The notes below the pieces were generated by a model. It did not search any database, was not told where the DNA came from, and saw only the letters and a program-made list of their open reading frames with translations. The position numbers and the translations under genes were made by a program. Source: a virus. From it: a DNA stretch of 64,000 bases. The stretch is from IMG/VR virus record IMGVR_UViG_3300046370_000603. The stretch is one strand, 5' to 3'. Numbering within the stretch: the stretch's first letter is position 1; the number at the start of each line of letters is the position of its first letter. Of this stretch, positions 36,811 to 61,116 are shown one piece after another.

Positions 36811-39108
36811 ATGATAATCACACAGGAAAAATCTAAGGAAGTAATTAGTTCACACGATTTCGAGCAAGTTAATTGCACGATTGATGCAGAAGATATGCGT
36901 TATGTTGCATCTCTTCTTCGCAATAACTACTCTAACACTCGTCTTGCAGTAGTTAGAGAAATTAGTGCCAATGCTCTTGATGCCAATGCTGAAGCAGGTG
37001 TTACTCGTCCAATCGAAATCAAGTTACCAACTTCCATGAATCCAACATTTGCAGTTCGTGATTTTGGGGGTGGACTTAGCCAAGAAGATGTTTTCGGACT
37101 TTATTCCAAGTATGGTAAATCAACCAAACGCACATCCAACAATTACATTGGTGCTTTCGGTATTGGTAAATTTGCTCCACTTTCTTATGGTGACAATTTT
37201 ACTTGCGTTTCTTACCATGATGGCACAAAAACTTCTTACAATGTATTTGTTGATGAAAATGACGATACCAAGATCACAAAGTTGTTTGAAGAACCAAGCA
37301 ATGAACCAACAGGTTTAAGCATCGAAGTTGCAGTCTCCGAAGAAGATCGTAACGAATTTAGAGATGTTGTGCAAAAATTCTTTCGTTTCTTTTCTGATTC
37401 TGATATGCCAAAATTTCTTGGAGTCGAAGAAGATTTTATACAAACTCCTAAAAAAGTTTTGTCAAGTAAAACTGATGAATGGTTCTTTGCAGAAGATGAC
37501 AATAGGCATGGGTACAACCATTATTATTCTCATGTTCTTATGGGTAGAGTTGCTTATCCAATTGATCCAAATGCAATTATTGTTAGCAATTTTGTTTCCA
37601 ACGAAGATTCTCGCAGAATAATTCAACAACTTTTACAACAAAGTAATTTCTACTTTCGTGTGCCTCTTGGTTCAGTAAGATTGCATCATAGTCGTGAGTC
37701 GCTAGAATATAACAAAGCAACTCAAAAAGAAATTTGTGCGATTCTTTACAGAGTAAGTCAAGATATTCAAACTATTGCAAAAGAAAAACTTGCCGATAGT
37801 GAAGATTTGTGGGACGCAAAGAAAAACTATGCTCAAGTCGTTAATGCTCTACCTTATCAAGTAAGAGGAATATTTGAGAATAGTTTCGAGTGGAAAGGTA
37901 TCAAAATTGATAATTCTACATTCCAAAGAGACTATCAATTATCAGAAGATTTGATTATTACTCAATACGAAAAAGTTGAAGATAAAGATTCTCGCAATGG
38001 ATTCAAGGTAAGAGCAGATAAAACAAATCGCATTTATTGTCAAGACGATTATCTTGTGATGATGCAAGACATTGATTCTTCTCATGGCAACAATCTTAGA
38101 GTTCGCACTTTGATGAATGATTTACCCGATCTTAAAGGGGTTTTCGTTGTTCATCCTACTAGCGAATGTGGCAAATCAGAAGTTTATGATAATTGGCAAT
38201 TTGATCTTGTTGATGGAAAACATATTAGATATTCTTCTCTAGTAGAAAAGGAAAAAATTGTTCGCAATAAAGTTTCGGGTACAAGTCGTGCTTGTATTCC
38301 ATTGTTCAAGATGAAGTTTGACAAATCTAGTTATGCTTATCGTAATGCAGATTATTGGCAAAATGTCAACGAACCAATCAATTCACTTGAGCTAGGCGAA
38401 ATTGAAGGTTCTGTCAATGGTAAAATCATTTATGTTCCAATCAAAAACTACAAGGTTGATAGTGAATCTTATGATCTTGACAGAGTTTACAAAATCTGCA
38501 AGGGAGTTCGCAAAAAAGCCGAAGATAATTCTGATGAAAAAAATCTTCAATTATTCGGTGTGCGTTCAGCAGATGTCAAAAAACTAGATAAAAGTACATG
38601 GGTATCATTTTTTGATTTTTATCTTGACTATTGCAAGAACATCATTCGTAACAATAAGAAAGAATGTCAATCAGCATACAAAATAATTCAATTCAAAAAA
38701 TCTACCGATAATAATTTCGCTGAATATCGTTGGAGTTATGGTCAAGTATTTACCAATAACACATTTGATGTTTCTCTTTTCGGTGACCATTTATTTGCTC
38801 GTTGTGCAGAAAATTGGAAACTCCTTATGGAAGAGAATACAGATGATCGTAGATTTAGTGTTGCTATCAATGTCGTTAAGTTGGGTGATGAAGCATGGTT
38901 AGATGATATATTGGATACAAAAGTTGATGCAGAATCAATTATGCAGGATTTCAAATTACTTGATAAAAATTATCCTTTACTTCAAGTTGTTACAAGTCAT
39001 GTTAGCAATTGGGTCAATCTAAAACAAGACAATGACAAAAATGTAACCAACGAAACTCTCTTTGAATACATTTCCTTATGTGATGTGAATGGGGGAGAGA
39101 GAGCGTAA
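36811..39108 (+). CDS. rIIA: rIIA-like protein (GHKL/Hsp90-type ATPase N-domain)
   Basis: YSN..LAVVREISANALDA, VRDFGGGLS, YGKSTKR.SN..IGAFGIG; followed by rIIB-like gene. Confidence 0.85.
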   Translation: MIITQEKSKEVISSHDFEQVNCTIDAEDMRYVASLLRNNYSNTRLAVVREISANALDANAEAGVTRPIEIKLPTSMNPTFAVRDFGGGLSQEDVFGLYSKYGKSTKRTSNNYIGAFGIGKFAPLSYGDNFTCVSYHDGTKTSYNVFVDENDDTKITKLFEEPSNEPTGLSIEVAVSEEDRNEFRDVVQKFFRFFSDSDMPKFLGVEEDFIQTPKKVLSSKTDEWFFAEDDNRHGYNHYYSHVLMGRVAYPIDPNAIIVSNFVSNEDSRRIIQQLLQQSNFYFRVPLGSVRLHHSRESLEYNKATQKEICAILYRVSQDIQTIAKEKLADSEDLWDAKKNYAQVVNALPYQVRGIFENSFEWKGIKIDNSTFQRDYQLSEDLIITQYEKVEDKDSRNGFKVRADKTNRIYCQDDYLVMMQDIDSSHGNNLRVRTLMNDLPDLKGVFVVHPTSECGKSEVYDNWQFDLVDGKHIRYSSLVEKEKIVRNKVSGTSRACIPLFKMKFDKSSYAYRNADYWQNVNEPINSLELGEIEGSVNGKIIYVPIKNYKVDSESYDLDRVYKICKGVRKKAEDNSDEKNLQLFGVRSADVKKLDKSTWVSFFDFYLDYCKNIIRNNKKECQSAYKIIQFKKSTDNNFAEYRWSYGQVFTNNTFDVSLFGDHLFARCAENWKLLMEENTDDRRFSVAINVVKLGDEAWLDDILDTKVDAESIMQDFKLLDKNYPLLQVVTSHVSNWVNLKQDNDKNVTNETLFEYISLCDVNGGERA

Positions 39109-39206: not shown

Positions 39207-40361
39207 ATGAATCAAGTACCATATCAATTAACAGAAAATTCACTCACAATCTTTTGGGAAGGCAAGCCACACACAATTCGCAAAGATCATGTAAATTTCC
39301 AACTCGCCAAGAAAGCTATTCTTGATGCTAGATATGATGATCTCGGTGATCTTATTGATGTTGCCAAGGCAGTCGAAAATTTTGTTGAAGGTGATATTGA
39401 AGTTAAGGATGAAGTCGTTTATTACAAAGGTCATCGCTTGCATGGTGTTGTTGTTGACAAATTACTTGATATGCTTCGTGCAGGAATGAAAGATTCTGCT
39501 CCTCTTACCAACTTTATCACTCGCTTGCAAGCTAATCCAAGTGCAAATTCAGTAAATGAACTTTATTCTTTTATGAGTTATAAGTCTCTTGCGAATACTC
39601 CCGAAGGTAAGGTTTTGGGGTACAAAGGTGTGCAATCTGATTATTGGAGTACAACAGGTAATGCCGATACAATTGTATTGCAAGGGAAAACTAATGATCG
39701 TCACCAAATTCTCAATGAGGTTGGTGCAACAATTGAAGTTGCTCGTAGATGCGTAGATGACAATAAGGATAATCATTGTTCTTTTGGTCTTCATGTTGGT
39801 TCATTCGATTATGCTGATAGTTGGGCAGGAGAAGATGGAAGATTGCTTCTTGTGGAGTTTGATCCTGCTGATGCAGTATCTGTACCAACTGATTGTGACT
39901 TTCAAAAACTTAGGGTTTCTAAGTACAAGGTGATCTCTGATATTAGCGACACAAGAAAAGAGTTAAATAAACCTGTCTACGAGGCTAATAAGCCCATTTA
40001 TGGATCAGATGATGATGAAGACTGCGATTATGACGATGATGATTCTGATTTTGTTGATGAAGAGATGGCAGATAGAGTTGCCGATCATTATCTTAATAAT
40101 CCTAAAGATTTATTAGCTAATAATCCTCATTTGCTAGATAGTTATGAAGATAGAGTTGATTCAGTTGTGGAGAGCGTTCGCAAGTATGTTACTAATAAAT
40201 TAAATCTAGGAATTTTTCCAACAATTAAAGATATAGCAGATTTAAGAATTTGTAAATCCAATAAAATTGGATATGTTGGAGTAAAAAGTATTGTCGAAGA
40301 GTTAGGTTATGTTCTTGATTTTCTTGACTTGCCTCTTGGTCAACAAATTGTGGTCGAGTGA
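39207..40361 (+). CDS. rIIB: rIIB-like protein
   Basis: NPS..SV.ELY.F, GYKGV, VDD..NHCSFGLHVG, DPADAVSVP.D...KLRV..Y.V. Confidence 0.85.
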   Translation: MNQVPYQLTENSLTIFWEGKPHTIRKDHVNFQLAKKAILDARYDDLGDLIDVAKAVENFVEGDIEVKDEVVYYKGHRLHGVVVDKLLDMLRAGMKDSAPLTNFITRLQANPSANSVNELYSFMSYKSLANTPEGKVLGYKGVQSDYWSTTGNADTIVLQGKTNDRHQILNEVGATIEVARRCVDDNKDNHCSFGLHVGSFDYADSWAGEDGRLLLVEFDPADAVSVPTDCDFQKLRVSKYKVISDISDTRKELNKPVYEANKPIYGSDDDEDCDYDDDDSDFVDEEMADRVADHYLNNPKDLLANNPHLLDSYEDRVDSVVESVRKYVTNKLNLGIFPTIKDIADLRICKSNKIGYVGVKSIVEELGYVLDFLDLPLGQQIVVE

Positions 40362-41409
40362 TATTTTTGTAGAATTTTATTACTTGTAATATATAATATA
40401 TGTATATGAGTAAAACAATTCAAACATTAGAAGATGTATCAAATATTGACGAGCTAAATGAATTAATAGGAGAAGATGATATTTCCGAAGAAGAGTATCA
40501 AGATATGGTAAAATATATTCAAGATAAAAATTCTTCTAATAAATAGGTAATCCTTTCTCTCCTATGGGTATTGTGGCGAGGTTTCTCTTTGTCCTTGGTC
40601 AGAATTCATCACCCGATCCGTAACCACATAAAAGCGTGATCTAATTTATTTTCAAATAAACCTTACAACTATGAATTTACACAAGAAAATGATAATTTCA
40701 AATAATTTTTACTTTGTGCTTGCTTTATATATCAATATTCATTAGTATATATAACATAATACAATATATATAGAGAGAGAATATAAGATATAATATAATA
40801 AATCACACAAGAAATAATAAATATATTGAAATGTAATAGATTATAAATATAATGATTGAGGAGTACGCAAATTAATTATATAAAAATAAGATGAGAATAA
40901 AAGTATTGGCAATTATAAAAAATTATTTATTAAATAAAAAAATAAAAGATAAACAAAATAATTCAAAAGAAAAAAATTTAAAATATGTACGAAATAAATA
41001 TGGTTTTTTTTCACTTGAAAATAACAAAAAATAAACAATAATAAAAAATTTTACAATTAAATAAATAAATTAATTAAATAATAAATTATTACAAATAAAA
41101 TGAGCATCGAAGATCAAAGTGTAAATTTCGTAGAAAATCACATGGAAACGAGTTTCAGCGAAATAATGTCTTCAAAAATCATCAAAGAAATGTATTGGAT
41201 TGATGTTAAGGAAGGTGCAAGGGCGGTAGCAATAATGGGCGAAATAACTGAAGAGAAAAAAATAGAGAGTAATTTAATATGTCTCTTTCCAATATTTAAA
41301 CCAAAAGAAGATTAACGCAAATAATTACTTATTAGGATAAAAAATAAAAATAATTAAAACAAATATTATTGTTAATAAAAAAACATCCCACAATTCTAAA
41401 AAAGTCATA

Positions 41410-42277: not shown

Positions 42278-42306
42278 TTGACAAATAACATATTATATTA
42301 TATAAT
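42278..42306 (+). promoter_or_regulatory. Consensus sigma70 promoter upstream of a non-coding unit
   Basis: TTGACA-N17-TATAAT, perfect match. Confidence 0.8.
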
Positions 42307-42381: not shown

Positions 42382-42645
42382 GACCTCTCCGAGCAGTTGG
42401 AAATTGTTGGAGGCTCGGAGGGGTCGCTTAAATTTTGGAAGGGCTTATAATCCTTCCTGTGGGTGACCCGAATAAGCCTGTCGTGAGCGGGCTAAGGTAT
42501 GCAAATTCCCTGTGGTGGGGCGGTAGAGTTCAATCGAATGAGCCGATGACAAATACCATGTCTAATTTGTAGTTGGAAGTAGGTACACCATGAACTGATG
42601 TTCACGCCGAAAACTTGAAGGTATACAGTAATCCTTCCCCACACT
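42382..42645 (+). ncRNA. Putative structured non-coding RNA, unassigned family
   Basis: GC-rich island with no ORF >=60 aa, multiple hairpins, TGTGGG/CCCACA closing helix, between a consensus promoter and a terminator. Confidence 0.6.
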
Positions 42646-42666
42646 CTATTTATCATCCCCCACCCC

Positions 42667-42722
42667 AACCCTTCTCGGTAACTGCCTAGTAATATCCCAT
42701 TACTAACCGAGAAGGGTTTTTT
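42667..42722 (+). terminator. Intrinsic terminator
   Basis: AACCCTTCTCGGT...ACCGAGAAGGGTT + T tract. Confidence 0.75.
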
Positions 42723-43165
42723 GTTTTGACAACTGCGTTTTTATTTATTATAGTATACTCATGAAAACATTAAAAGACATACTATCAAATTACGGGTACA
42801 TCAACAGCAATCAACTTAAGGAGATAGCAGAGCACTTTCCTGCGTTCAGGGTGGTAATAAAATGGAGCGGGCTCCCCCGCGAGCGTCTTCCAGCCTGGGA
42901 GGCAATATCTAGAATCAAATCTGTAGAGGATCAAGATATCGATTACTGTAGAGAAGTATTTATATCAGGTAAAGAATATAATATATTACTAGACGCCTTT
43001 AATATTGCAAAATAAAAATAAATAACAAAAATATATTATGGAAATAATACTCGTATTAACGGTAGCCCTAGGAGTAAAAATGTTATTAGATGAAATATAA
43101 AAATAAATAAAATATAAAGTAAATAAATAAATGATGAAATAAATTTGATTATGATTACCTCCTTG

Positions 43166-43194
43166 ACCCCCACTGTAACAGGTGGGGGTTTTTT
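43166..43194 (+). terminator. Intrinsic terminator
   Basis: ACCCCCAC...GTGGGGGT + TTTTT. Confidence 0.75.
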
Positions 43195-43216
43195 GTTGCA
43201 CAATTCTACTGTTTCA

Positions 43217-43288
43217 TAAGTCTTTAATTATCAAGCACTTGCGAGCGCGGCTGCCGTGCTACATAAGTCCTTGATTGACAAGCTTTTA
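43217..43288. repeat. Dyad element copy 1
   Basis: TAAGTCTTTAATTATCAAGCACTTG-N22(GGCTGCC)-TAAGTCCTTGATTGACAAGCTTTTA. Confidence 0.92.
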
Positions 43289-44926
43289 CAAAAGCATTTT
43301 TATTTACTTTTTATTTGACAGAAACTAAAAATTAGTTTAGTTTTATATTATGCAAGAGACAATAGATATTACACCAACATGGTCAGCACTCATTCTTCCG
43401 ATGATTGAGGTGTTGAAGAACCCAAAAGCAGGATACGAAGACAAGCAAAATGTTATATTTGAATTAAAGCGTTTGGCTAAAATCGTTGACGACCAAAACG
43501 CAAAGATCAAAGCAAATGACAAAAACAAAACTAATTAAAGAAATTTTAGATCAAATGAATTATCTAAGCCCACGAGAATTGATGAAAATTTTCGAGATGA
43601 TTTATGGTCAAGGAGAAGTTGAACTAAAAGAAGTAGATTGGAGTAAGTAATGACATTATCAGAATCAATTATGGACATCGTTAGAGGCAACCTCGCATGG
43701 TCAGACCCCATGTCAACAGTTTGCCTCGATCAACATGAGCGTCACCCCGAAAAGTTTCCAAAGGGTAGCTCGTTTCAAACTGAAGATGAATCTTTAGCAG
43801 ACATCATTCGAGACTTGACATTATTACAAAATGAGCTTAGGATAGAATCATCTTTTCAATCAGCACAACTATAACACAAGGAAAAATCATGACAACAGTA
43901 TTAGACACACCCGAACAAATCGAAATGTTTCGCTACAAAACTCTTCTTAAAGGGTTAAGGCTCGAGACTTTAGGAATGCAAATGAGCAGGGGCAAATCTT
44001 GCTATTCTATCATCAAACAAGAGTTCGGTCTCAAAGGTAGCAAGCAAAAAGTTTTCGATCAATTCAAATTAATGTTAGAACAAGTAAACGAAAGGGCAGT
44101 ATAATGACAGCATCACAAGTAGAAGCGAGAGTAGAAAGTTGGAATTGGAATATGAATATCTTTGAGATTTATGATGAACTTAGAGATGGACATTCAGCAA
44201 AAGATCAAGAAAATTTACTTTCTTTTGCCTATCGTTATTTTAACAAAGACAAAATGATTTTAGAGCTTGCCTCTCATTTTGGAATCTATAACATAGAGGA
44301 TGATAACAATGAATAATTACATAGAAGCAACCTGCATCGGCAGTCCACTAGGTTTGCCCGAATACAATGAAGATACTGAGCAATGGGAAGTATTTTTTGA
44401 AGAATCAGAAACGCCTTGGTTTCCATACGATATTCCAAGAGACATTCTATCCGTGAGCTTTGAGTCGGCAGATTTGGCTTGCGATGTTTACAATCACTAC
44501 AACCAAAACCCCGTAAAAGAAGAAACTCAAGATGAAGAAATTACTAATTAAAATTTATCGCTTTTTTAATCCGCTATACCAAGTGGTTTATCAAACCAAA
44601 GATGGTAGAACCGAAATGTACACAATTACAAAACCTATGCACGAAAATGAATTCGGCAACCAACAAGAGGGAAAAGATGTCGTTGGCTTCAGATCTTTTT
44701 GCGTGAATAAAGATGGTATCAGATCTTTTCGTTATGACCACATTGTATCCCTAACCAAAATCTAATTATGAAGAAAGAAATACAAAATAAAAATACCCTA
44801 CAAGAGAGCTTGAGAAGATTTGGGCATATGCTTGCCATGCGTGAGCAGCGCGGCGATAATTCAACGGAATACAAAAAGAAACAGGCTATGCACGAATCTA
44901 TGCTAAGAAAGCTTTACAACCAATCG

Positions 44927-44998
44927 TAAGTCATTGATGCTCAGCCACTTAGGTGGCGGGCTGCCGTGCTACATAAGTCCTTGATTGACAAGCGTTTA
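44927..44998. repeat. Dyad element copy 2
   Basis: TAAGTCATTGATGCTCAGCCACTTA-N22(GGCTGCC)-TAAGTCCTTGATTGACAAGCGTTTA. Confidence 0.92.
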
Positions 44999-45060
44999 AA
45001 AATTTAAAATTATTTAACTTTTTTCTTGCAGTAATTAAAAAAATTGCTTAGTATGTTTAC

Positions 45061-45474
45061 ATGATACTAAGAAACCAACAAGATCCACGATACACAATCA
45101 AAAAGAATCGTCCCGTATATGTTTACAAGAATCTACATAAAGATTGTTGGAGCATCAAGCAACATGGATTAGTAAAAGCTCACATTCCAAAGGATCATGC
45201 TATTGGATTATGGGATTGCTATTTTCATGTCGATGCCAAAGGCAGAGAAAAAGTTCTTCGTGAGAAGCGTAAGAATGTTCATGCTTTTGTCAAGGGCTAC
45301 CTTCAAGATGCTGAGAATGTATCTCGCAATCCCCAAGTTGTCACCAGGAAAGTCGAGGTAACATATAATCCTTACAAGTATGAGACTTTTGTCGAGAAGG
45401 ATACCGAAAAGTTTGCGTACTATGCAGACGAAGTTTTATTAACACACAACAAAGTAACCGCTTATATGTCATGA
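45061..45474 (+). CDS. Conserved phage hypothetical protein
   Basis: VYKNLHK.CWSI...GREKVLREKRKNVHAFV.G...YNPYK motif recognised from other phages. Confidence 0.6.
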   Translation: MILRNQQDPRYTIKKNRPVYVYKNLHKDCWSIKQHGLVKAHIPKDHAIGLWDCYFHVDAKGREKVLREKRKNVHAFVKGYLQDAENVSRNPQVVTRKVEVTYNPYKYETFVEKDTEKFAYYADEVLLTHNKVTAYMS

Positions 45475-45832
45475 ATATTACAACAGCATTAGAAATTGTA
45501 TTAGACCTAGCCAATCAAAATGTTATTGACGATCCTGAAATGAAAGAGGAGGCATCAAAACAAAATGAAGCTATTGAATGGGTTGCATATTATTTAGAAA
45601 ATTTTATAAAGAAAGGTAAACATTAAAATGAAAGAAGAATTATACTCAATTAAAACCGCCATTGACGGACTCAGCGATGAGATACTAGAACATCGCAGAC
45701 ACGCAAACATGGACGACCTCGTCAAGGTAATGAAGAATATCAACGACAATCTTGTTGCAATTAGTTTCGACTTAAAAGATCTAGTTGAAGCAAAAAAGTT
45801 TCAAAATGAGTTGACAACCGCACTCAGATAGG

Positions 45833-45904
45833 TAAATCCTTTATAGTCAGTCACTTAGGTGACGGGCTGCCGCGCGATCTAAGTGCTTGATATTCAACGA
45901 TTTA
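45833..45904. repeat. Dyad element copy 3
   Basis: TAAATCCTTTATAGTCAGTCACTTA-N22(GGCTGCC)-TAAGTGCTTGATATTCAACGATTTA. Confidence 0.9.
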
Positions 45905-46346
45905 AAAAAATCAAAATTACTTAACTTTTTTCTTGCTATAATTAGGTATTTAGCCTACTATGTATATATGAAAGCGAGAGAGATAAAGATCAGAAAACCA
46001 ATTCTTTTTACTAAGTCCCGCCCGCACAAAGTTAAAAACAAGACAATCCACAGAAAACTCAAACATAAGGAATTATTAGCATGAATATCAGCGAAGACTA
46101 TTTAGACAATGAAAACCCAAATGCAGACGAAGTAATGACTCGAGCCATGAGTTGGCTTTGGAAACACTTCATTGAACCTAACACAGATCACATTACAGAA
46201 GAACAAGCTGAAATGCTTACAATGATTGGCGTTAGCTTTAAAATGATTGCAGAACAAGCTGATGCTTACGATCAAACTTTTGAAGAAAGTCCATATTTAA
46301 ACAATTAACTCTTGACAAAAAACATTATAACTATTATTATACTATC

Positions 46347-47219
46347 ATGAATACAGAAGAAAACAACATTAACGCTCCTCGCAAATCCGTAAACTTACAC
46401 ATTTGTGGAGGTAATCGTACTTTAGTAGATTTTGATCAAGTGCAAGCAGTACCAACTCCTTTGGCAACCATGCGTAGCAAACCAAACAAAAGAACAGGTG
46501 AGCTTGCTGTTTCTCATCAGCCAATCGCTCATGATGAGCTTATCGTTCGCACTAGAGAATCTTTAACTCAAAAAGGTTTTGCTATTCAAGATGAAGTTCA
46601 CTCTCTCGCTAGAGGCGATCAGCACTATTTCGGTTTATTTGCCGTAGATCATCCTAATCGAGTTGCAACTGATCGTGGTTGCGTTGTGGGCGTTCGTAAC
46701 TCTCACGACAAAACATTCCCCGCAGGACTTTGTGCAGGTGATGCTCCATTCGTTTGCGATAATTTAATTTTTACCAATACCATTAAACTTGCTCGCAGAC
46801 ATACTCGCAACATTCTCAACGATCTTGACTTTATGATCAATCGTGCTTTGGGTAAGTTGTTCGGATTTTGGCATGGACAAGATCAAAGAATTGAAGCCTA
46901 CAAAGATCGTTCTATCGGCAATGTTCTTGCTCACGATCTAATCATCAAAGCGGTTCGTGCAGGTGCTTTACCAAAATCTAAAATTCTTGATGTTGCAGAT
47001 CAATGGGAATCAAGCGATCATGTTGAATTTAAGGATCGCAATGTCAATTCTCTTTATAATGCTTTCACCGAAATTTACAAAGGCAACTTAGTTGCCTTGC
47101 CAAATCGCTCGGATGCTCTTCATTCTGTTCTTGACAACTATGTTGATTTTAATATCGACAACCATGTTGAAAATACTCTTGATATGGAAGTTGTTGAAGG
47201 CGAATTGGTTGAAGTTTAA
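46347..47219 (+). CDS. DUF932-like phage/plasmid protein
   Basis: H.PI.H, GVRNSHDK, G...FVCDNL.F, RRHT, SLYNAFTE. Confidence 0.65.
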   Translation: MNTEENNINAPRKSVNLHICGGNRTLVDFDQVQAVPTPLATMRSKPNKRTGELAVSHQPIAHDELIVRTRESLTQKGFAIQDEVHSLARGDQHYFGLFAVDHPNRVATDRGCVVGVRNSHDKTFPAGLCAGDAPFVCDNLIFTNTIKLARRHTRNILNDLDFMINRALGKLFGFWHGQDQRIEAYKDRSIGNVLAHDLIIKAVRAGALPKSKILDVADQWESSDHVEFKDRNVNSLYNAFTEIYKGNLVALPNRSDALHSVLDNYVDFNIDNHVENTLDMEVVEGELVEV

Positions 47220-47242
47220 AAATTGGTTTGTCGTTTCGTTTT

Positions 47243-47270
47243 GCTCCCCCGATTGGGGGAGCTTTTTTTT
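47243..47270 (+). terminator. Intrinsic terminator
   Basis: GCTCCCCC-GATT-GGGGGAGC + T8. Confidence 0.85.
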
Positions 47271-47289
47271 GGAATGATTTAGGCTTTTG

Positions 47290-47361
47290 TAAGTCTTTGG
47301 TTATCAAGCACTTAGGGGCGCGGCTGCCGCGCGCCATAAGTCGCTGATGTTCAACGATTTA
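47290..47361. repeat. Dyad element copy 4
   Basis: TAAGTCTTTGGTTATCAAGCACTTA-GGGGCGCGGCTGCCGCGCGCCA-TAAGTCGCTGATGTTCAACGATTTA. Confidence 0.92.
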
Positions 47362-47651
47362 AGAATGTCATTTTAGTTCATTTTTTTCTTGCGTTAAATT
47401 GTTTTTTTTGCGATAGTGTAACCATGAAAAGAATAGTAAAAATCTTAATGGAGCGTGACGGGCTTTCCCGCGAAGACGCTATTCACCAAACCGCAACTTT
47501 TTTCCGTGAAATGTCTGAAGACATTGCAATGGGTGGTGATCCATTCGAATGGGAAGAAACATTTACCAGTGAGTTTTCTCTAGAACCAGATTTTTTTGAA
47601 GATCTTATTTTTTCGCTTGCAATTGCATAAAAATTTGGTTAGTTTTATATT

Positions 47652-48377
47652 ATGAATCTATTATCAAACCCATCTAAAATGCCTTGCTTAGGCTTTAACA
47701 TTCCCGCTTTCAAGTATTGCCCTGCAGCTCAACTCATGGCAAAGGTCAAGGACAAAGCAAAAAAGTTTATTTGTGATGCTTGTTATGCTTGCAAAGGTTT
47801 TTATATGTTTAACAATGTCAAACAAAGTTTGCAAGACAAGGCAAATTTTGTCACCAAGTCTTTACATCGAGACAATGGGCAAACTTTTGTAAATGAGATA
47901 TCCAAGCAAATCAAGGCAAAGTATTTTGACAAGCAAGGCAACAAAAAAGTTTTAAAGAATGTCAACACAGATCTTTTTCGTGTTCATGATTCAGGAGATC
48001 TTTTTTCCCCAAAGTATATCGAGGCATGGATTAAGATTTGCGAAAATTTTCCTTCAATTCGCTTTTGGTTTCCAACTCGTGAGTGGGCAAGAGATAGTCA
48101 ATTGCCTTCACTTCGCAAGCTCGCAAGTTTAAAGAATGTTTGCTTAAAACCAAGTGCTTTATATGTTGATGAACCCGCTCCACAAATCGATGGTCTAGAT
48201 GCGGGAACTTCCGTCTATAGCTCAAAAGAGAAAGCTGAGCAAGACGGGCATTTTGTTTGTCCCGCAACTTATGTTAAGGGCGAAGACGGCAAGGTTCTTG
48301 CAACTTGTAAAGCTCATAATTGCAACTTATGTTTTATCAAAGGATGCAAAAAAGGTATTGCATATTTAGCTCATTAA
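47652..48377 (+). CDS. GP88-like Cys-rich phage protein
   Basis: SKMP..FNIPA..CP, C.ACYA.KG.Y, FRVHDSGD, FWFPTRE, C-terminal CPA..C...C..C. Confidence 0.7.
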   Translation: MNLLSNPSKMPCLGFNIPAFKYCPAAQLMAKVKDKAKKFICDACYACKGFYMFNNVKQSLQDKANFVTKSLHRDNGQTFVNEISKQIKAKYFDKQGNKKVLKNVNTDLFRVHDSGDLFSPKYIEAWIKICENFPSIRFWFPTREWARDSQLPSLRKLASLKNVCLKPSALYVDEPAPQIDGLDAGTSVYSSKEKAEQDGHFVCPATYVKGEDGKVLATCKAHNCNLCFIKGCKKGIAYLAH

Positions 48378-48569
48378 TCTATAATTAAAGCCATGAATGA
48401 AGAAACTTATTTTGACTCAGCCCAAGGAATTGACATTTCACAAGATCGTGCCTTAGAAGAATTAGCCAGGCACGGCATTACTTCCAGTGAGGAAATTATT
48501 GAATTTTTTGAAGACATGGGCGACAAGGAAGGGTATTCAGCCCAAAAAGTTCTTGAGTGGTTAGGCTAC

Positions 48570-48641
48570 TAAAGCCTTGACTATCAAGCACTTAGGGGCG
48601 CGGCAGCCGCGCAAGCTAACTGCCTGTTAGCCAACGACTTA
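48570..48641. repeat. Dyad element copy 5
   Basis: TAAAGCCTTGACTATCAAGCACTTA-N22(GGCAGCC)-TAACTGCCTGTTAGCCAACGACTTA. Confidence 0.9.
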
Positions 48642-49573
48642 CACAAGCATTTTTATTTAACTTTTTTCTTGCGTTAATTGTAGAAAGAGTTTAATGTGTT
48701 TATATGATTAACTACGACATACCAAACTCAATCTCACAATTCAACCCAAAACCTTCTATGTTAGATTTTGACGATCTAGATTTTCAACCACATCGTGGTG
48801 CTGATGATGCAGTCCAAGCAAGACTTGACTTTGGCAACGGGCTAGAAATTTCTGTTGTTGCAAGTAAAGATGGCAGAGCAGGATTATATGGTAGTGTGGA
48901 GGAAGATTTGTACGAAGTTGCAGTTTTTTACAACAATGAAATGATTCCGCTTTCTCGTTCTGACGATGTTGTTGGCTGGCAATCTCCTGCTCAAGTATCT
49001 ATCCTAATGGCGAAAGCTCAATCCGAAGGAAGCGTTTGGGTTGATGAGCTAATTGCAGACAAAGCAGAATTTAGAAGAGATTTAGGGCTTGACGACTAAA
49101 CCAAACTAAACTATATTATTACTATGACAGAAGAACAAAGACTCGCAGTTATCGCTAACGCATATCGTGAATCCAAAGGTTTGCCAACTAATTCCTCAGT
49201 ATTAGAATTAGTCGCAGACTTACAAGCAGAACAATTGGTTGTCGAGCATGGATTGAAAGATGTTGAAAGAGATGACATTACAGATGAAACTCAGTTCTTA
49301 CTTACTGATGTCGCTGAAGATATTGATGAGGAAGATGAAGAAATCGGATTATCCGATGAAATGAAAGGAATATATTATGATAGTTGAATTGTTTTTATTA
49401 TCGCCTTGGCTTCTTGTTTTTTATATTATGTGGAAAGATATGATAGAAGAATGATGCCAATTTTAATTATATTATCGATTCTACTTTATCTTTATATCCA
49501 AGACTAAATTTCTCAAATAGCAAATAACTTTTTTTAGTAGTATTAGTTGAAGTTGTTGGATTAGCCCTCGTCC

Positions 49574-49645
49574 TAAGTGATTGATAATCAAGCACTTAGG
49601 GCGGGCGGCTGCCAAATTCATAAGTCCTTGATTATTAAGGATTTA
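49574..49645. repeat. Dyad element copy 6
   Basis: TAAGTGATTGATAATCAAGCACTTA-N22(GGCTGCC)-TAAGTCCTTGATTATTAAGGATTTA. Confidence 0.92.
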
Positions 49646-49889
49646 TTTTTTTTATTTTTTTCTTGCAAGTTTTATTTTTTTATAGTAGTTTACTTTTATG
49701 GATAATCAACAAGACTCTCTCGAAAACATTGCTCACGCCTACGGCATCACTGATGCTGATCTTGATGAACGCGAATCTGTGCTTGCTCAAATAGCACAGG
49801 AAGAACTTGAAGAGTATGACCGCCAAGCTCTCAAAAAATTCTCTGAAAACGAGGATTTTGACTGGGGTTATCACGCCCAATGGGATTTC

Positions 49890-49961
49890 TAACTCGTTGG
49901 TAGTCAGTCACTTAGGTGACGGGCTGCCGACAAGCTTAAGTCTTTGATTATCAAGCTTTTG
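49890..49961. repeat. Dyad element copy 7
   Basis: TAACTCGTTGGTAGTCAGTCACTTA-N22(GGCTGCC)-TAAGTCTTTGATTATCAAGCTTTTG. Confidence 0.9.
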
Positions 49962-50023
49962 CAAAAGCATTTTTATTTACTTTTTTTCTTGCGTATTTTA
50001 AAATTTTGTTCTAGTGTGTATAC

Positions 50024-50230
50024 ATGAAACATTCAGAAAGTGGAACTCGCAAAGTGTTAAAACAATTACGGAAATGTCCTGAAATCGAAAAGATTCGTGA
50101 GACTGCAAGTGGGCATATGATCCTTGCTAGAAATGGAGAGCAGTATCTCGCCCATTTTAGTGCAAGAGCATTTCACCCATTGCGTAGATGGTTAAAAAGA
50201 AACACTTCATTAAAAACATTAAAATTCTAA
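50024..50230 (+). CDS. Small basic protein, possible HicA-like fold
   Basis: 68 aa, helix followed by RETASGHMIL...H pattern reminiscent of HicA. Confidence 0.3.
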   Translation: MKHSESGTRKVLKQLRKCPEIEKIRETASGHMILARNGEQYLAHFSARAFHPLRRWLKRNTSLKTLKF

Positions 50231-50234
50231 AATT

Positions 50235-50456
50235 ATGGATACTTACAACGGCTGGAAAAACTGGGCGACCTGGAATGTTGCTCTTTGGTTAGGGAATGAC
50301 GAATATCTTTACAAACTTTCTCGTAGGTTTGTTAATTACAAAGATCTTGCAAATACGCTCATAGAAATGGGTAGTCCTTGTACGCCTGACGGGGCAAGGT
50401 ATGCAGATGAAGACTTAGACACCTACGCCCTCGATGAATTGTTGCAAGAAGAGTAA
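50235..50456 (+). CDS. Conserved phage hypothetical protein
   Basis: YNGWKNWATWNVALWLGNDE.LY...TPDG motif. Confidence 0.6.
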   Translation: MDTYNGWKNWATWNVALWLGNDEYLYKLSRRFVNYKDLANTLIEMGSPCTPDGARYADEDLDTYALDELLQEE

Positions 50457-50524
50457 GTCGTTGATTATCAAGCACTTAGGTGCTTGGCAGCCGCACCCAT
50501 AAGGGCTTGGCTATCAGTGACTTA
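50454..50524. repeat. Dyad element copy 8, at the convergence of + and - transcription
   Basis: TAAGTCGTTGATTATCAAGCACTTA-N21(GGCAGCC)-TAAGGGCTTGGCTATCAGTGACTTA. Confidence 0.92.
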
Positions 50525-51383
50525 TGTCAGCAATCTTTTTGTGATTCCCATTTTAGTTTCCAATCCCTGCAACGGCAGGAAGTTTTTAGTGCGGGTGTTG
50601 AAAGTTTTGCAATTTGTTGCCCGACATCAAATCGTGCTTGCCAAGCTTTGCCGTAAGCAACCGATTGATCTTGCAAACTCTTTGAATTATCCCAAAGATT
50701 ATAGCAACGGGCATTTAAGTCATTCCATTTTTGATTTAATTCTTGCAATGTCATAATTATTTTCCCCTTATAGTTTTTCGGTTAACATTTCTTCCCTTAC
50801 CGCATTGTTTGCAATGTTGTTAATTTCGGTCATCCATTTATCAACATTTTCATTGAACACTTTTCCATCGCCTGAAATGTTTTCTGCAACTGTGTTTTTA
50901 ATAGCTCTTGCTTGAGCCGCAATGCCTAAGAGTGCTCTTGACAAGTTGTAAGCTTGGTGATTTTTATATGAATCGTTTTCTATTAAGTCAACGATTGAGA
51001 TGGTGTCCGTATTAGCTTTCATATATATAAGGTAAACGATTTATTAAGTAATTGCGAATTTTATTTTAGTAAATTTAAAAGATCATTTACGCATGGTTCA
51101 GTGATGTGTCCATCTACTTTCATTGCGTCGATGATTTCTTTATTTGTTACATCTTTAGATGCTTCGACTATTTGATCCCAAGTCCAAACATTATTTGCGA
51201 CATCTTCCCACAGGGAAACGCCCGACTTTTCGTCGCGTGAAAACTCAAGAAGCCCATTGACTCCGATTACATGATTGATTCTGATCTTATCCATAAAAAC
51301 AAGGTAAACTAGTGGTGCGTGTTTTGCAAGCAAATACAGATTTTTTTTTGTCTTTTTATTTAAATACCAAATAGTCAAATAGT

Positions 51384-51452
51384 GCAACTTTTTAGGAGTG
51401 GCGGGATTGTGCAACTTTATAGTTGTAGTAGTATTGGGCAACTTTATAGTTG
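51384..51452. repeat. Three GCAACTTT(ATAGTTG) direct repeats with 27-bp period
   Basis: Copies start at 51384, 51411 and 51438. Confidence 0.75.
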
Positions 51453-51477
51453 GCACACTTCCTGAACTCCTCTTTTG

Positions 51478-51548
51478 TAAGTCGTTGTTTATTAAGCACT
51501 TACAGCAGCGGCAGCCGCCTCCCTAAGTGCTTGATTATCAGTGACTTA
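51478..51548. repeat. Dyad element copy 9
   Basis: TAAGTCGTTGTTTATTAAGCACTTA-N21(GGCAGCC)-TAAGTGCTTGATTATCAGTGACTTA. Confidence 0.92.
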
Positions 51549-52584
51549 GGAGGCTGATCTTATCGGTGTGCTAGACCTTCCAATCGTGCTATTTGATTGT
51601 CCAATTCTATTTGTATGGCTTCAATGTCTGAAGCCTTCTTTTTATTGTTTAATTTCATCGCCTTGACTCTTTCGTTATTCAACGCCATGATTTGAGTTCT
51701 TAATTTGTTTATTGTGTTTTTTATGTATTCCATGATTAGATTAAATCGTAGTATTGTGGCGAGTAGTCAACATGGCAAGAGTGGGATTCTATCTCTTCAT
51801 CCATGTTGTCGTTAAGTTCTTTTTTAATTGCTTTGACAAGATCCAAATTGATTGAATCAATCTCTTTGCCGTTACCATCAAAACGCTTTACGCTTTCAAG
51901 AGTATCAAAGTAAGCTACCAAGTGAACGGCTGAGACTTGGTCTCCATAAAGAGACTCCTCTGTATCTGTCGATGCTCTACCTTGCAGTTCGTAGTATTCT
52001 TCGCCCACTTCAGCATAGGCGGAAAACTCTTCTTCGGTTACTTCGTCGAATTCTATTTTTATTTCTGTCATACCTTACTATCGTCTATTTTTTAACTTTT
52101 GTCAAATTTATTTTGAATTATTTTTGAAACATTATTTCAAGGCAAGTGTCGAATTGTTCACGAAAGAGTCTTGGTGCATCTGTGACAAACCAAGTTTTGC
52201 TAGTGTTTGTGATTAACCTTTCTGTGATCTTTTTGCTTACGACATCTAAAAGATCTGTATTCTCGTAAATGTTGGATTCTGTCAATTCGTTTGTTTGTTC
52301 GTTTACTAGCTTTGCCATGTAGACATCTATATATTCGGGTTTATATGAATCATTTATCAAGATGTCATCTTGACAAGCTACTGCCTCAACCCTGTAAGTT
52401 GTGCCGCTTATTCCCATCAGGAAGTTAAAAGTGAATTCTTCTGTGTCTGTATTGTATATTGATTTCATATACATAAACTAAGGCATATATTAACTAAAGT
52501 CAAATTTATTTTGAATTATTTGGCAACTATTTTATTGCATTATTCTATCACATGAATTGGCATGGTTTCTGTACATGCGTCTCG

Positions 52585-52655
52585 TAAGTCGTTGTTTATT
52601 AAGCACTTACGAGGGCGGCAGCCGCCGCCCTAAGTGCCTGATTATCAGTGACTTA
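52585..52655. repeat. Dyad element copy 10
   Basis: TAAGTCGTTGTTTATTAAGCACTTA-N21(GGCAGCC)-TAAGTGCCTGATTATCAGTGACTTA. Confidence 0.92.
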
Positions 52656-53680
52656 GGAAAGCGTTTTAGTTATAGTGTATAGATGTATAGTGCAACCGAT
52701 AAGAGGATTATGCAAGTCATACATACACCTCCTCTGTATGTGTTACCCAATCGTATTCGTCAATTTCTTGCCCGTTTAGCATAGGGGTAAAGTTCTTTTG
52801 ATAAATGCCTAATCCTGTTATGCCGTTGACTCTTTCCCTTGTTGTTGGAGTGTTCCAACCTGCAAGCGTTGCCATTACAAGCCCGCTTACATCTCGTTTG
52901 ATTATCTCGTTGCCATGTAAGAAGACGCTTGTGCCGTCTGTTCTTGTGTTGCCAACCTTTAGAGAAGTGCCTTGCTCAAAGGCTTTTTTAATTCTTTCTG
53001 TTACTTTACGCATTTGTTTCTTCCTCTGTTATGATTTGAAAATGTGGATTGTTTCGTTTTATTTGTTTTGCAATTTGCAAGGCTTTTGCTTGTGATTTTG
53101 CGTTGTCTATTAGTTCCCCAAAAAGGCGAATGTCAAACCAATTTGAAAAGTTAGGATTTCGTAGTATTTTAATCATTTCTATTTTTACCTTTCCTTGTGT
53201 GTTGTGTCAAGACTTACCTTTTAAAGTAAGCCTTGACTTGATCGGCAGTTGCCTTGATTAGGTCAGAGATAAAAACCTCTGACTCGAAAAGATGATCTTG
53301 CGAATGATGCTTGATCGTTGCGACCCGTTGAGATCCGACTCTGTCGATAGACACGAGACGAACAACTTTATTATTAACCTTTGAGTGGTAAAGGCTTCCG
53401 ACTTTTAATCCTTTAGTAATGTTCATATATACAAGGTAAACGAATTGGTGCGTTGTGTCAAACTATTTGAGTAAAAAAAACGCTTTTTTTAAAAGTTTTT
53501 TTGGTTGCACTATACCCCCATTTTTTGAATTTTTTCCCGCCCCTCAATCTCAGATTTGGCGGGGGGGTGGGTTTTCTCAAAAAGTTTCCCGCGTATTCTC
53601 ACTGAAATAACCTTTTTTGAAAAAAAAACGACGCATATTTGAATTCTAACTGTATATAATGATAATAATATTATATAAAT

Positions 53681-54409
53681 ATGCCAAGACGAAAAAAACC
53701 TGAAATTACTAATGATCAGGATATTGAAAATATAGTAGGTACTATTGGAAAAACTAAAATAAAAACACACAAAATTAGTTTTACCGATAAACAAACTGAG
53801 TTATTAAAAATCATATTTGATAGAAATACTAAAATAGTTTTTGTTAGTGGTCCTGCGGGCACTAGTAAAACTTTTATGGCTATATACGGCGCTATACAGC
53901 TGTTTAATATGAATAATGACTACTCTATTGGATATGTTCGAACAATTATAGAAAGTGCAGATAGAGGCATGGGCGCCCTTCCTGGTAACGTAGATGAAAA
54001 GTTCTGTCCTTTCATGATGCCTTTAACCGACAAGCTTTATGAACTTAGCCCAGCGTCCGACGCAAAAAAAATGATTGACAAGGAAATAGTAAAAGCTATG
54101 CCAATAAATTATTTACGGGGAGCTAGTTTTAAAGATCAGATCATTATAGCTGATGAATCACAAAATTTCACAACAAAAGAACTAATTACTTTAATTACTA
54201 GAATTGGCGAAAATACCAAACTAATAATTTGCGGCGACTCTATGCAAGCTGATATTAATGGAAAGAGCGGCTTTAACCCAATCAAAGATCTTTTTAGTAA
54301 TGAAGCAAGTGAAAAGCAAGGTATATATAATTTCGAGTTTGATTATAAAGATATAAAACGTAGCGAAATATTAAAATATATAGTTAAAAAATTAGAGGAA
54401 TTAGATTAA
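53681..54409 (+). CDS. phoH: PhoH-family ATPase
   Basis: GPAGTSKT, G.LPG...EK, YLRGASF, IADESQN, ITRIGENTK..CGD..QAD. Confidence 0.92.
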   Translation: MPRRKKPEITNDQDIENIVGTIGKTKIKTHKISFTDKQTELLKIIFDRNTKIVFVSGPAGTSKTFMAIYGAIQLFNMNNDYSIGYVRTIIESADRGMGALPGNVDEKFCPFMMPLTDKLYELSPASDAKKMIDKEIVKAMPINYLRGASFKDQIIIADESQNFTTKELITLITRIGENTKLIICGDSMQADINGKSGFNPIKDLFSNEASEKQGIYNFEFDYKDIKRSEILKYIVKKLEELD

Positions 54410-58823: not shown

Positions 58824-59257
58824 AAAAAGAAATTAAAATTGTATTAATAGATTTAGATAAAACACTGTGGAGATTTGACAGTTGGAATCAAGGTGTAGTC
58901 TCCGAAGAAAAACTTAGAAATTTTTTATTCCCAGAAGCTCTAGAGGCTATAGAATTAATTAAAAATAAAGGTTACAAGATAGGTATAGCATCTGCCAGCC
59001 CTTCGTCAACAATTTGTCATATTTATTTAGATAAATTATTTCCAAAAGATTATTTTGATATAATAATTATTCACCCTACATACCCATATAAAACTTATCA
59101 CTTTAATCAAGTTGTAGAAAAATTTGGTTATAGTTATAATAATATATTAATGATTGATGATTTAGAACCTATTATCGAGAACGCTAAAGCTTTAGGGGTT
59201 CAAACAATTCACGCAAAATCAGGATTATCAAAAAACTCTATAATTGACTTATTGTAA
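58820..59257 (+). CDS. HAD-superfamily phosphatase (MDP-1-like)
   Basis: DLDKTLW, IAS, K, MIDD. Confidence 0.75.
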   Translation: MKKEIKIVLIDLDKTLWRFDSWNQGVVSEEKLRNFLFPEALEAIELIKNKGYKIGIASASPSSTICHIYLDKLFPKDYFDIIIIHPTYPYKTYHFNQVVEKFGYSYNNILMIDDLEPIIENAKALGVQTIHAKSGLSKNSIIDLL

Positions 59258-61116
59258 TGACTTGGGAACCAGGAATTCAAAAACGTAAAACACTTACAAA
59301 AGATGTAAACGAGGAGATTAAATCTTTAGAAGGATTTCTATCTGAAAACGAAGCTAAAATATTACTATATAAATTTTTAAGAGAAAATATCACTTTTAGC
59401 ACAAACTTAATAGCTGGAGTGGATTTATTTCCTTTTCAGCACATGGCTATTAAGGCTATGTTTGAATCAGATTATTTTTTAGGTATATGGTCTCGAGGAA
59501 TGTCCAAGTCCTGGACAACGGGGATTTTTGCCTTTATGGACGCCATTATGAACCAAGGTGTGGATATCGGTATATTATCAAAATCTTTTAGGCAAGCAAA
59601 AATGATTTTTAAAAAAATTGAGGATATTGCAGCCAAACCTGAAGCTAAATACTTAGCAAATTGTATAACAAGAGTTTCTAAACAAAACGACGAATGGGTC
59701 ATGGAGATAGGATCTAGTTCAATTAGAGCGTTGCCTCTGGGTGACGGTTCCAAGCTTAGAGGTTTTAGGTTTCATAGAATTATTATCGATGAGATGCTAC
59801 TCATGCCTGAGAGAGTTTACAACGAAGTTATTGTGCCATTCTTGTCTGTCGTTCAAAACCCAAAAGAACGAGAGGATATGTATAACCTTGAAACAAAGCT
59901 GATTAAACAAGGCAAAATGAAAGAAGAAGATAGATATGTGTGGCCTAACAATAAATTGATTATGCTATCTTCAGCTAGTTACAAATTTGAATATTTATAC
60001 AAATTATATGAAAACTTCGAACAACTTATATTAAATGAGAATGACAGTAATGCAAATAGATCTATAATGCATTTCTCATATGACTGCGCCCCGAAACAAT
60101 TGTATGACCAGAATCTAGTTGAACAAGCTAAATCAACAATGAGCCAAAGTCAGTATGACCGAGAGTTTGGAGCAATTTTTACTGACGATAGCTCAGGATA
60201 CTTTAAAATATCAACAATGCAAGAGTGTACCATTCCAGAAGGGTCTGCGCCAAGTGTTGAAGTAAAAGGGCTGGAGGGTGATAAATATATATTAGCATTT
60301 GACCCGAGTTGGGCAGAGTCCGAAAGTTCTGACGATTTTGCCATGCAAGTTTTTAAGCTTAGTGAAAAAACTGGTGTCGCAACCTTAGTTCACGTTTACG
60401 CTATGGCTGGAGAGAGTTTAAAAAATCATATTAATTATTTTTATTATTTATTAAATAATTTTAATATTGTTGCTATTGTAGGTGATTATAATGGAGGAGT
60501 TCAATTTATAAATGCTGTAAAGGAAAGTTCTTTATTTAAATCTTCTAATATTAAAATCAATATAATTGAAACAGAATTTGATGATTTAGAGAATTACCAA
60601 AAGTCTTTAAGAAGCGCTAAAAGAGAATTTGCTAAAGAAGGATTACCTTGCATACTCAGGAAACCTACTTCGGAATGGATACGCCGAGCCAATGAACTTC
60701 TTCAAGCTAATTTTGACCACAAAAGAATATGGTTCGCTTCACAAGCTATAGACGATCATTTTCAGTCTCAAAGAAGAAAAAAAATTCCAATTAAAAATCT
60801 AAGGTTTATGAATTTCGCTGAAGAAGAAGAGAAACAAAGCGATGGCGCTAAAATGATAGATTTAATTGAACATCAATACGATATGATATCGTATACAAAA
60901 GGACAGTGCGCGTTAATTGAAGTGCGTTCTTCGCCCCAAGGAAATCAAACTTTTGATTTGCCATTAACCTTAAAGAAAACAACTGGCCCGAGTAAAGCCA
61001 GAAAAGACTGCTACTCAGCATTAGTTTTGGGAAGCTGGATGATTAAGATATACTCAGACATTCATCACTTTAAAGACGAGACTTTAAATACGTTTGTGCC
61101 AATGTTCATAAAGTAA
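59257..61116 (+). CDS. terL: Terminase large subunit
   Basis: LFPFQ, SRGMSKS Walker A, LRG.R...IIIDE Walker B, LSSA, nuclease domain AFDP..DD..KD.YSAL. Confidence 0.85.
   Translation: MTWEPGIQKRKTLTKDVNEEIKSLEGFLSENEAKILLYKFLRENITFSTNLIAGVDLFPFQHMAIKAMFESDYFLGIWSRGMSKSWTTGIFAFMDAIMNQGVDIGILSKSFRQAKMIFKKIEDIAAKPEAKYLANCITRVSKQNDEWVMEIGSSSIRALPLGDGSKLRGFRFHRIIIDEMLLMPERVYNEVIVPFLSVVQNPKEREDMYNLETKLIKQGKMKEEDRYVWPNNKLIMLSSASYKFEYLYKLYENFEQLILNENDSNANRSIMHFSYDCAPKQLYDQNLVEQAKSTMSQSQYDREFGAIFTDDSSGYFKISTMQECTIPEGSAPSVEVKGLEGDKYILAFDPSWAESESSDDFAMQVFKLSEKTGVATLVHVYAMAGESLKNHINYFYYLLNNFNIVAIVGDYNGGVQFINAVKESSLFKSSNIKINIIETEFDDLENYQKSLRSAKREFAKEGLPCILRKPTSEWIRRANELLQANFDHKRIWFASQAIDDHFQSQRRKKIPIKNLRFMNFAEEEEKQSDGAKMIDLIEHQYDMISYTKGQCALIEVRSSPQGNQTFDLPLTLKKTTGPSKARKDCYSALVLGSWMIKIYSDIHHFKDETLNTFVPMFIK

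Follow-up and report, generated by a model that had tools for sequence, protein, structure and literature searches.

Ten copies of a repeated element, each 71–72 bp long, lie within 9.4 kb between the rIIB and phoH genes of a 64,000-nucleotide (nt) stretch of viral DNA (IMG/VR virus record IMGVR_UViG_3300046370_000603; the whole stretch analysed is called the window below). The copies have swapped sequence with one another, their halves assort independently and the exchange points are scattered across the module. The small gene cassettes that the elements border are permuted among related phages, and the elements show no general base-pair covariation. We consider it reasonably probable that the elements are boundary modules and that their mosaic comes from ordinary recombination between repeats rather than from a dedicated site-specific enzyme. 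The source is a large, AT-rich, uncultured marine phage (~31% GC across the window), and the array is a hyperplastic early-gene region.

Sequence exchange among copies of a paired element

Columns of the element are numbered from the first base of its left unit. Each element has a 25-bp unit at either end. Between the units lies a GC-rich spacer of 21–22 nt, centred on the 7-bp core GGCWGCC (columns 33–39), with an arm of 7 nt before the core and one of 7 or 8 nt after it. The unit itself is a 25-bp dyad with the consensus TAAGTSSTTGAT-W-ATCAASSACTTA. The ten elements account for all 20 units in the window and for 10 of the 11 occurrences of GGCWGCC (1.3 expected); the eleventh, at 296, lies within an open reading frame (ORF) and lacks a flanking unit. 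Unit starts are 47 bp apart in copies 1–7 and 46 bp apart in copies 8–10, and these two distances hold for 146 of the ~180 close unit pairs in the whole set of fetched loci. In four elements the first TAA of the unit doubles as the stop codon of the upstream gene (Table 1). The preliminary description of this DNA had recognized seven copies of a smaller element; two paired units and their spacer make up the full module, and elements 8–10 complete the set.

Identity between copies is distributed in patches. Copies 3 and 7 are identical over columns 12–40 (45844–45872 and 49901–49929), copies 4 and 5 over columns 13–43 save for the central T/A, and copies 1 and 2 over columns 33–68 (43249–43284 and 44959–44994); copies 3 and 4 have columns 33–44 and 62–74 in common, and the flank AAGCATTTTTATTTA is common to copies 1, 5 and 7. 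Every shared string quoted in the preliminary description is present in the sequence. From column-wise background identities, the chance of an identical run of 29 columns over columns 40–68 is ~1e-7 per pair. Instead of being congruent, the distance matrices of the two halves and the flank were uncorrelated (Mantel r = −0.19 for left versus right, −0.17 for right versus flank and −0.16 for left versus flank), whereas interleaved-column controls within segments gave r = 0.49, 0.54 and 0.82 (p = 0.048, 0.004 and 0.001), bearing out the earlier claim that left and right similarity groupings are incongruent. The reassortment was first described as simple half swaps; the shared tracts are in fact patches with two ends, the other ends falling at columns 11/12, 12/13 and 68/69.

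The same architecture recurs beyond the window. Searching viral contigs with the bare 14-mer returned mostly chance single matches; a composite-pattern search was informative but skews core frequencies, and spacers were therefore re-read from unit-based detection. The family alignment (A3) contains 54 non-redundant elements. The unit and its paired arrangement occur in many uncultured IMG/VR viral contigs of 33–41% GC; two records, 78 and 84 kb long, have every unit except one within a single array of ~10 kb, and the array adjoins phoH in most loci. The lineage also includes contigs of at least 159 kb. The window has the cassettes in the order 0-1-2-3-4, two related records (G001 and G002) in the order 0-3-2-1-4 and another (G004) in the order 0-2-1-3. 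Cassettes are permuted without inversion, with permutation junctions falling within elements, and in side-by-side alignments the left unit accompanies the cassette upstream of it, and the promoter flank accompanies the one that follows. Block distances across the family form three groups (upstream with left; right arm with right unit; flank with promoter) with r ~0 between groups, the linkage breaking at the centre and at the boundary between right unit and flank.

Conservation differs along the module. The centre base is T in 38, C in 8, A in 7 and G in 1 of the family elements; in the 47-bp form, with orientation set independently by the extra spacer base, it is polar (T in 28 versus A in 7). 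Relatives carry centres such as GGCCGCC, GGGAGCC, GGTTGCC and CGCTGCG, and in some the motif is wholly absent. The arms (columns 26–32 and 40–47) are the least conserved columns of the element, at a background identity of 0.25–0.57 except in columns 27 and 40. Some relatives thus keep the unit without GGCWGCC, indicating that the unit, not the core, is the conserved module. A higher-GC relative (locus L073, 900–2700; IMGVR_UViG_3300012928_000022) carries this 25-bp unit in direct tandem, two or three at a time, with GC spacers of 15–17 nt that lack GGCWGCC and a canonical terminator after each unit group; it also has the GTTTACCTT start motif described below, and some minus-strand genes in common with the window.

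Candidate binding units and promoter modules

Each half of the unit resembles a binding site for IHF. The half-site logo reads W-A-T-C-A-R-S-S-A-C-T-T-A, with A5, T11 and T12 invariant, and half-sites across the family follow the IHF consensus (applied here as WATCAR-N4-TTR) at every specified position, with a full match in 73 of 216. Strict matches number 29 in the window versus 12.8 expected, 15 of them within the 20 units. The AA/TT steps of the unit (T8/T9 and A17/A18) are 9 bp apart; the IHF-H' complex has two kinks separated by 9 bp, one on the AA of TATCAA and the other on a TT step (PMC12854757), and the 9-bp kink spacing also appears in bioRxiv 10.1101/382655. The unit centre TTGATTATCAA is one base off the matching segment TTGCTTATCAA of IHF-H', as rebuilt from two dodecamers. 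The units therefore resemble IHF sites and their geometry is consistent with that resemblance, making each a predicted binding site. Other identities were considered and dropped: a MotA-box likeness (TGCTTGA in the unit), which is not at −30 of any promoter, a Fur-box likeness of the unit centre, and a parS or operator array.

Copies 1–7 are each followed by a T-rich flank and then by TTGnnn, 17 nt, TAnnnT, 6 nt and ATG, and the right unit ends 62–63 nt before the ATG in five of the seven. Most of these predicted promoter modules score under the 9-of-12 consensus threshold of the promoter scan. At least 12 cassette starts have one geometry (−35, 17 nt, −10, 6 nt, ATG), seen at 42726–42763, 43316–43352 and 46312–46349 and in the promoters after elements 2–7; it is found on the minus strand as well (51020–51037, 51292–51309 and 53424–53441), where the starts use an unusual conserved −10 region, GTTTACCTT. 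With the −10 ending only 6 nt before the ATG, transcripts would start at or beside the start codon, implying leaderless cassettes. Upstream of the minus-strand gene 51064–51294, the intergenic DNA contains three copies of a separate repeat, ATTGNGCAACTTT, one every 27 nt (51379–51445), and the akin TTGCACAAT lies near 43195; these copies are possibly sites of a second regulator.

Scattered exchange points and the explanations weighed

Change-points were located by maximum likelihood in 40 element pairs with homology on one side only. Four fell upstream, five in the left unit, three in the left arm, none in the core, two in the right arm, six in the right unit, 19 in the flank (columns 73–90) and one in the promoter; support intervals took in the core in five pairs and excluded it in 35. 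This is largely the even spread of breakpoints that the preliminary description had set against its proposal of repeated crossover at or near the core. Exchange itself stands, and several of the sharpest tract ends do lie 1–5 nt from the core, but confinement of crossover to the core is not supported. G001 and G002, which are 96% identical, differ by a recent event that spans column 41 to ~column 95. On the left it is joined just past GGCAGCCGA, on the right at the T-run preceding the −35, and a second element is not involved. T-centred and A-centred elements have also exchanged sequence. A natural variant of the window (locus L224, 1–330; a JGI 3300048023 contig), 99.85% identical to it over 43333–48093 (4.8 kb), has a cassette-2-like gene whose terminal TAG is followed at once by the −10 region of cassette 1; both the element and the −35 are missing there.

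We infer a unit-binding protein, promoter activity and recombination enzymes behind these patterns. The units would be protein-binding, DNA-bending sites for a host IHF/HU-type protein or a phage protein, and they may mark cassette boundaries and organise the region upstream of the early promoters. A module of ~140 bp repeated ten times in 10 kb would offer portable homology to a general recombination system. Short-patch ectopic gene conversion between copies could then produce the incongruent left, right and flank groupings, and reciprocal exchange between copies could insert, delete and permute cassettes among related phages.

Several observations weigh against this account of boundary modules recombined by ordinary means. 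A gene for HU/IHF (PF00216) was not found in the related phage records, nor did PHROGs and Pfam comparisons of the conserved small proteins yield a binding protein for the units. The sigma-70-like promoters after copies 1–7 are predictions from sequence, and elements 8–10 have no promoter within ~100 nt, so a promoter-only role fails for them. Identity blocks between copies are short (7–14 nt), which would make the exchange microhomology-level unless recent copies were more alike. Homology alone also does not predict an excess of exchange ends at the centre: 20 of 43 ends of recent near-identical tracts fall in the 22-nt central spacer (47% versus the 30% expected from chimeras simulated with uniform exchange points and read with the same detector; binomial p = 0.016, with ends that are not independent), and of the four sharpest events (columns 12–40, 13–43 and 33–68, and the G001/G002 difference) every one has an end no more than ~5 nt from the core. 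The centre may be a mild hotspot, though it is not the sole crossover point.

This central excess is what a break-initiated process would explain. A structure- or sequence-specific nuclease would cut at or beside the GC centre, either at a palindrome tip or at a GCWGC-type site, and repair from another copy would leave one-sided tracts running from the centre to variable ends. The polar centre fits such cutting, and an HNH-domain ORF is present in the window. Over half of the tract ends nevertheless lie outside the spacer, and 19 of the 40 change-points lie at the unit/flank boundary. The arms carry no conserved stem, which makes a cruciform not general; the central enrichment is modest, comes from non-independent pairs and falls for the most part in the left arm, whose columns also covary with the neighbouring unit; and no nuclease is linked to the site. 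We regard the break-initiated process as unlikely overall, yet as a live minority explanation for the central excess.

Quite unlikely, in our estimation, is dedicated site-specific recombination at GGCWGCC, in which the IHF-type units would act as accessory bending sites and the cassettes would be integron-like and self-expressing. The 7-bp centre is conserved and polar, IHF-type sites flank it on both sides at a rigid distance as in lambda attP, cassettes are reordered without inversion, and some junctions resolve to the core region. The preliminary description had proposed repeated crossover at or near the 7-bp core, a length that it matched to the 6–8 bp overlap regions of tyrosine recombinases. 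The rest of the evidence disagrees with a tyrosine recombinase acting there: conservation is lowest in the arms that such an enzyme would bind, the centre is variable or absent and differs between elements that have exchanged sequence, most change-point intervals exclude the core, and the G001 insertion is not bounded by two elements. Phage_integrase (PF00589), Resolvase (PF00239) and Y1_Tnp (PF01797) domains were found in none of five related records (G001–G005), and no recombinase appeared among the strong Pfam matches of 102 window ORFs; the related records are 11–67% complete and the window is part of a genome, so this absence counts as supporting evidence only. We give similarly little credence to a bolder version, in which the 72-bp module would be a dedicated cassette-exchange site of an abundant marine phage lineage, its two symmetric IHF-type U-turn sites presenting a polar GGCWGCC to a phage nuclease or recombinase. 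If it were true, leaderless, self-promoted cassettes would undergo directed excision, capture and reordering, and the system would be the phage equivalent of an integron that works by a different chemistry.

A hairpin formed in RNA or DNA (a terminator, an RNase III site or a cruciform), in which pairing is selected and the halves merely look reassorted, is very unlikely. The consensus is indeed a long imperfect palindrome at the 3' ends of genes, and a subset of elements has a local hairpin, NNCAC-TTAG-GTGNN, that is 47.5% paired versus 43.2% when shuffled, with none of 500 shuffles as high. Pairing across the 54 family elements was nevertheless no higher than in shuffled controls for the long palindrome formed by the two halves of one element (71.1% versus 72.0%), for a stem across the core (59.9% versus 60.4%) or for hairpins within the unit (72.6% versus 73.4%), and no covariation was seen; the dyad symmetry accordingly resides in the consensus, as for a protein-binding site. 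None of the ten elements was terminator-like in a terminator scan and no T-run follows their GC part, whereas real terminators stand just upstream of elements 1 and 4; the elements also match no Rfam family at gathering thresholds. In the hairpin subset, the arm beside a unit is complementary to the unit's inner half-site (A3 columns 17–22 with 27–32), with several compensatory pair types; examples lie at 50470–50485, 44943–44958 and 45849–45864, and include AAGCAC-TTAG-GTGCTT, GCCAC/GTGGC and GTCAC/GTGAC.

Finally, groupings that arose with no exchange at all, by chance or by convergent selection on few allowed states, are extremely improbable: units have few variable positions and some homoplasy is expected, but identical runs of 29–36 nt span the most variable columns (~1e-7 per pair), only the within-segment controls correlate, and the physical permutation of cassettes between genomes already contradicts the idea.

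Genomic setting and relation to known systems

The rIIB–phoH interval spans ~10 kb, is packed with small ORFs and has its GC raised to 35–38% (Table 1). Comparison with cultured phages found no close relative of the window phage, and a megablast of 43–53 kb against them gave zero matches. Likeness to T4 is weak (rIIA ~27% identical, large terminase not T4-like), and on these comparisons the phage is not a recognisable T4-like virus. Cassette ORFs are mostly without an assigned family, and comparisons with PHROGs and Pfam assigned no function to the conserved small proteins. Among the cargo of the arrays, the 290-aa DUF932-like protein is shared most widely, with 939 homologues at E ≤ 0.001 in marine metagenomes, some of them labelled DUF932; its nearest cultured matches are in Salinibacter phages (28% identity), and it has no useful relative in the PDB.

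Table 1. Positions of the elements, associated signals and selected genes in the window
Feature	Position	Strand	Remarks
rIIA	36811–39108		
rIIB	39207–40361		
Intrinsic terminator, canonical	43165–43190	+	Just upstream of element 1
Element 1	43217–43288	+	Unit 43217–43241, core 43249–43255, unit 43264–43288
Nine gene cassettes	43289–52584	.	1–8 small ORFs each, elements as borders
Predicted promoter module after element 1	43289–43349	+	T-rich flank, TTGACA, 17 nt, TAGTTT, 6 nt, ATG at 43350
Element 2	44927–44998	+	First TAA is stop codon of ORF 44768–44929
Equivalent promoter module	44999–45060		
L5 gp82-like protein	45061–45474		Cassette cargo
Element 3	45833–45904	+	
Equivalent promoter module	45905–45969		
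DUF932-like 290-aa protein	46347–47219		Cassette cargo
Second intrinsic terminator, canonical	47243–47262		Just upstream of element 4
Element 4	47290–47361	+	
Equivalent promoter module	47362–47423		
GP88-like protein	47652–48377		Cassette cargo
Element 5	48570–48641	+	Core GGCAGCC; TAA is stop of ORF 48393–48572
Equivalent promoter module	48642–48703		
Element 6	49574–49645	+	Extra spacer base on left side
Equivalent promoter module	49646–49697		
Element 7	49890–49961	+	TAA is stop codon of ORF 49698–49892
Equivalent promoter module	49962–50023		
Element 8	50454–50524	.	71-bp symmetric form, between convergent genes; TAA is stop of ORF 50235–50456
Element 9	51478–51548	-	71-bp form, between minus-strand genes
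Element 10	52585–52655	-	71-bp form, between minus-strand genes
phoH	53681–54409		
Large terminase	59257–61116		

The window also holds two tRNAs and one manA RNA, the only Rfam matches that it gave. The manA motif (RF01745, 79.3 bits, 42437–42647) lies just upstream of the array; a perfect TTGACA-17-TATAAT promoter (42278–42306) precedes it, and a hairpin with a T-run follows it at ~42676–42712, read by eye and absent from the terminator-scan list. Downstream of rIIB, a GC-rich island without an Rfam match (40546–40640) sits in a very AT-rich intergenic stretch. GCWGC is absent over 15590–43250 (27.6 kb) and occurs at 35 sites in the window versus 52 expected, 11 of the 35 in or beside elements; restriction-type cutting at GCWGC was considered and dropped, the depletion pattern being all that showed.

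Like integron attC arrays, the array lines up small cassettes within one orientation block; an imperfect palindrome closes each cassette, and the order is shuffled among relatives. It differs in that no IntI was found among the records and ORFs searched, inspection of the consensus revealed no R/L boxes or GTTRRRY core, there is no structure-conserving covariation, junctions are scattered and each plus-strand cassette has its own promoter-like module. Tyrosine-recombinase sites of the lambda attP type likewise combine a short polar centre with IHF-consensus sites at a fixed distance, whereas here the same searches found no recombinase gene, the arms are unconserved, the centre differs between partners and junctions are not confined to it. 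The REP/BIME sequences of enterobacteria are extragenic imperfect palindromes at gene 3' ends, paired with defined linkers, that serve as substrates for ectopic recombination, and their RIB/RIP class carries an IHF site. The elements described here share with them the position at gene 3' ends, the imperfect palindromes, the pairing, the IHF-type sites and a probable role in ectopic recombination; they differ in being phage-borne, gathered in one 10-kb array and coupled to predicted promoters, in lacking a RAYT-type (Y1) transposase in the records searched, and in sequence, which is unrelated.

The best fit among known systems is the PeSL paradigm of T4-type phages, in which cassettes show crossovers at several motif positions and ORFans are shuffled (Arbiol et al. 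2010, PMC2839356; Comeau et al. 2014, PMC4122927). In both cases short composite motifs are repeated in a hyperplastic early region and bound small ORFan cassettes, and related phages differ by indels, replacements and shuffling with junctions at several positions in the motifs. PeSL motifs are coupled to a sigma-70-like early promoter, for which the promoter-like modules after copies 1–7 are candidate counterparts. The differences lie in design: PeSL has a GC stem-loop terminator, whereas the module described here is 72 bp long, has no conserved stem and carries two 25-bp IHF-type dyad units at a rigid 46–47 bp. Its cassettes also look leaderless, without a Shine–Dalgarno module, and its phage is not recognisably T4-like. 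Cassette shuffling via portable regulatory repeats, known so far from T4-type phages, may occur in an abundant uncultured marine phage lineage too, with repeats of a different design in which symmetric IHF-type sites are paired at a rigid distance. Viromes could be searched for such hyperplastic arrays and their cargo simply by means of the 25-bp unit; the cargo is made up of small early genes, a class in which host-takeover and anti-defence functions are usually found. Whether a helper protein acts on the GC-rich part was left undecided by the PeSL authors (PMC2839356, PMC4122927), and the modest central excess of exchange ends described here keeps alive their question of whether a targeted protein helps recombination.

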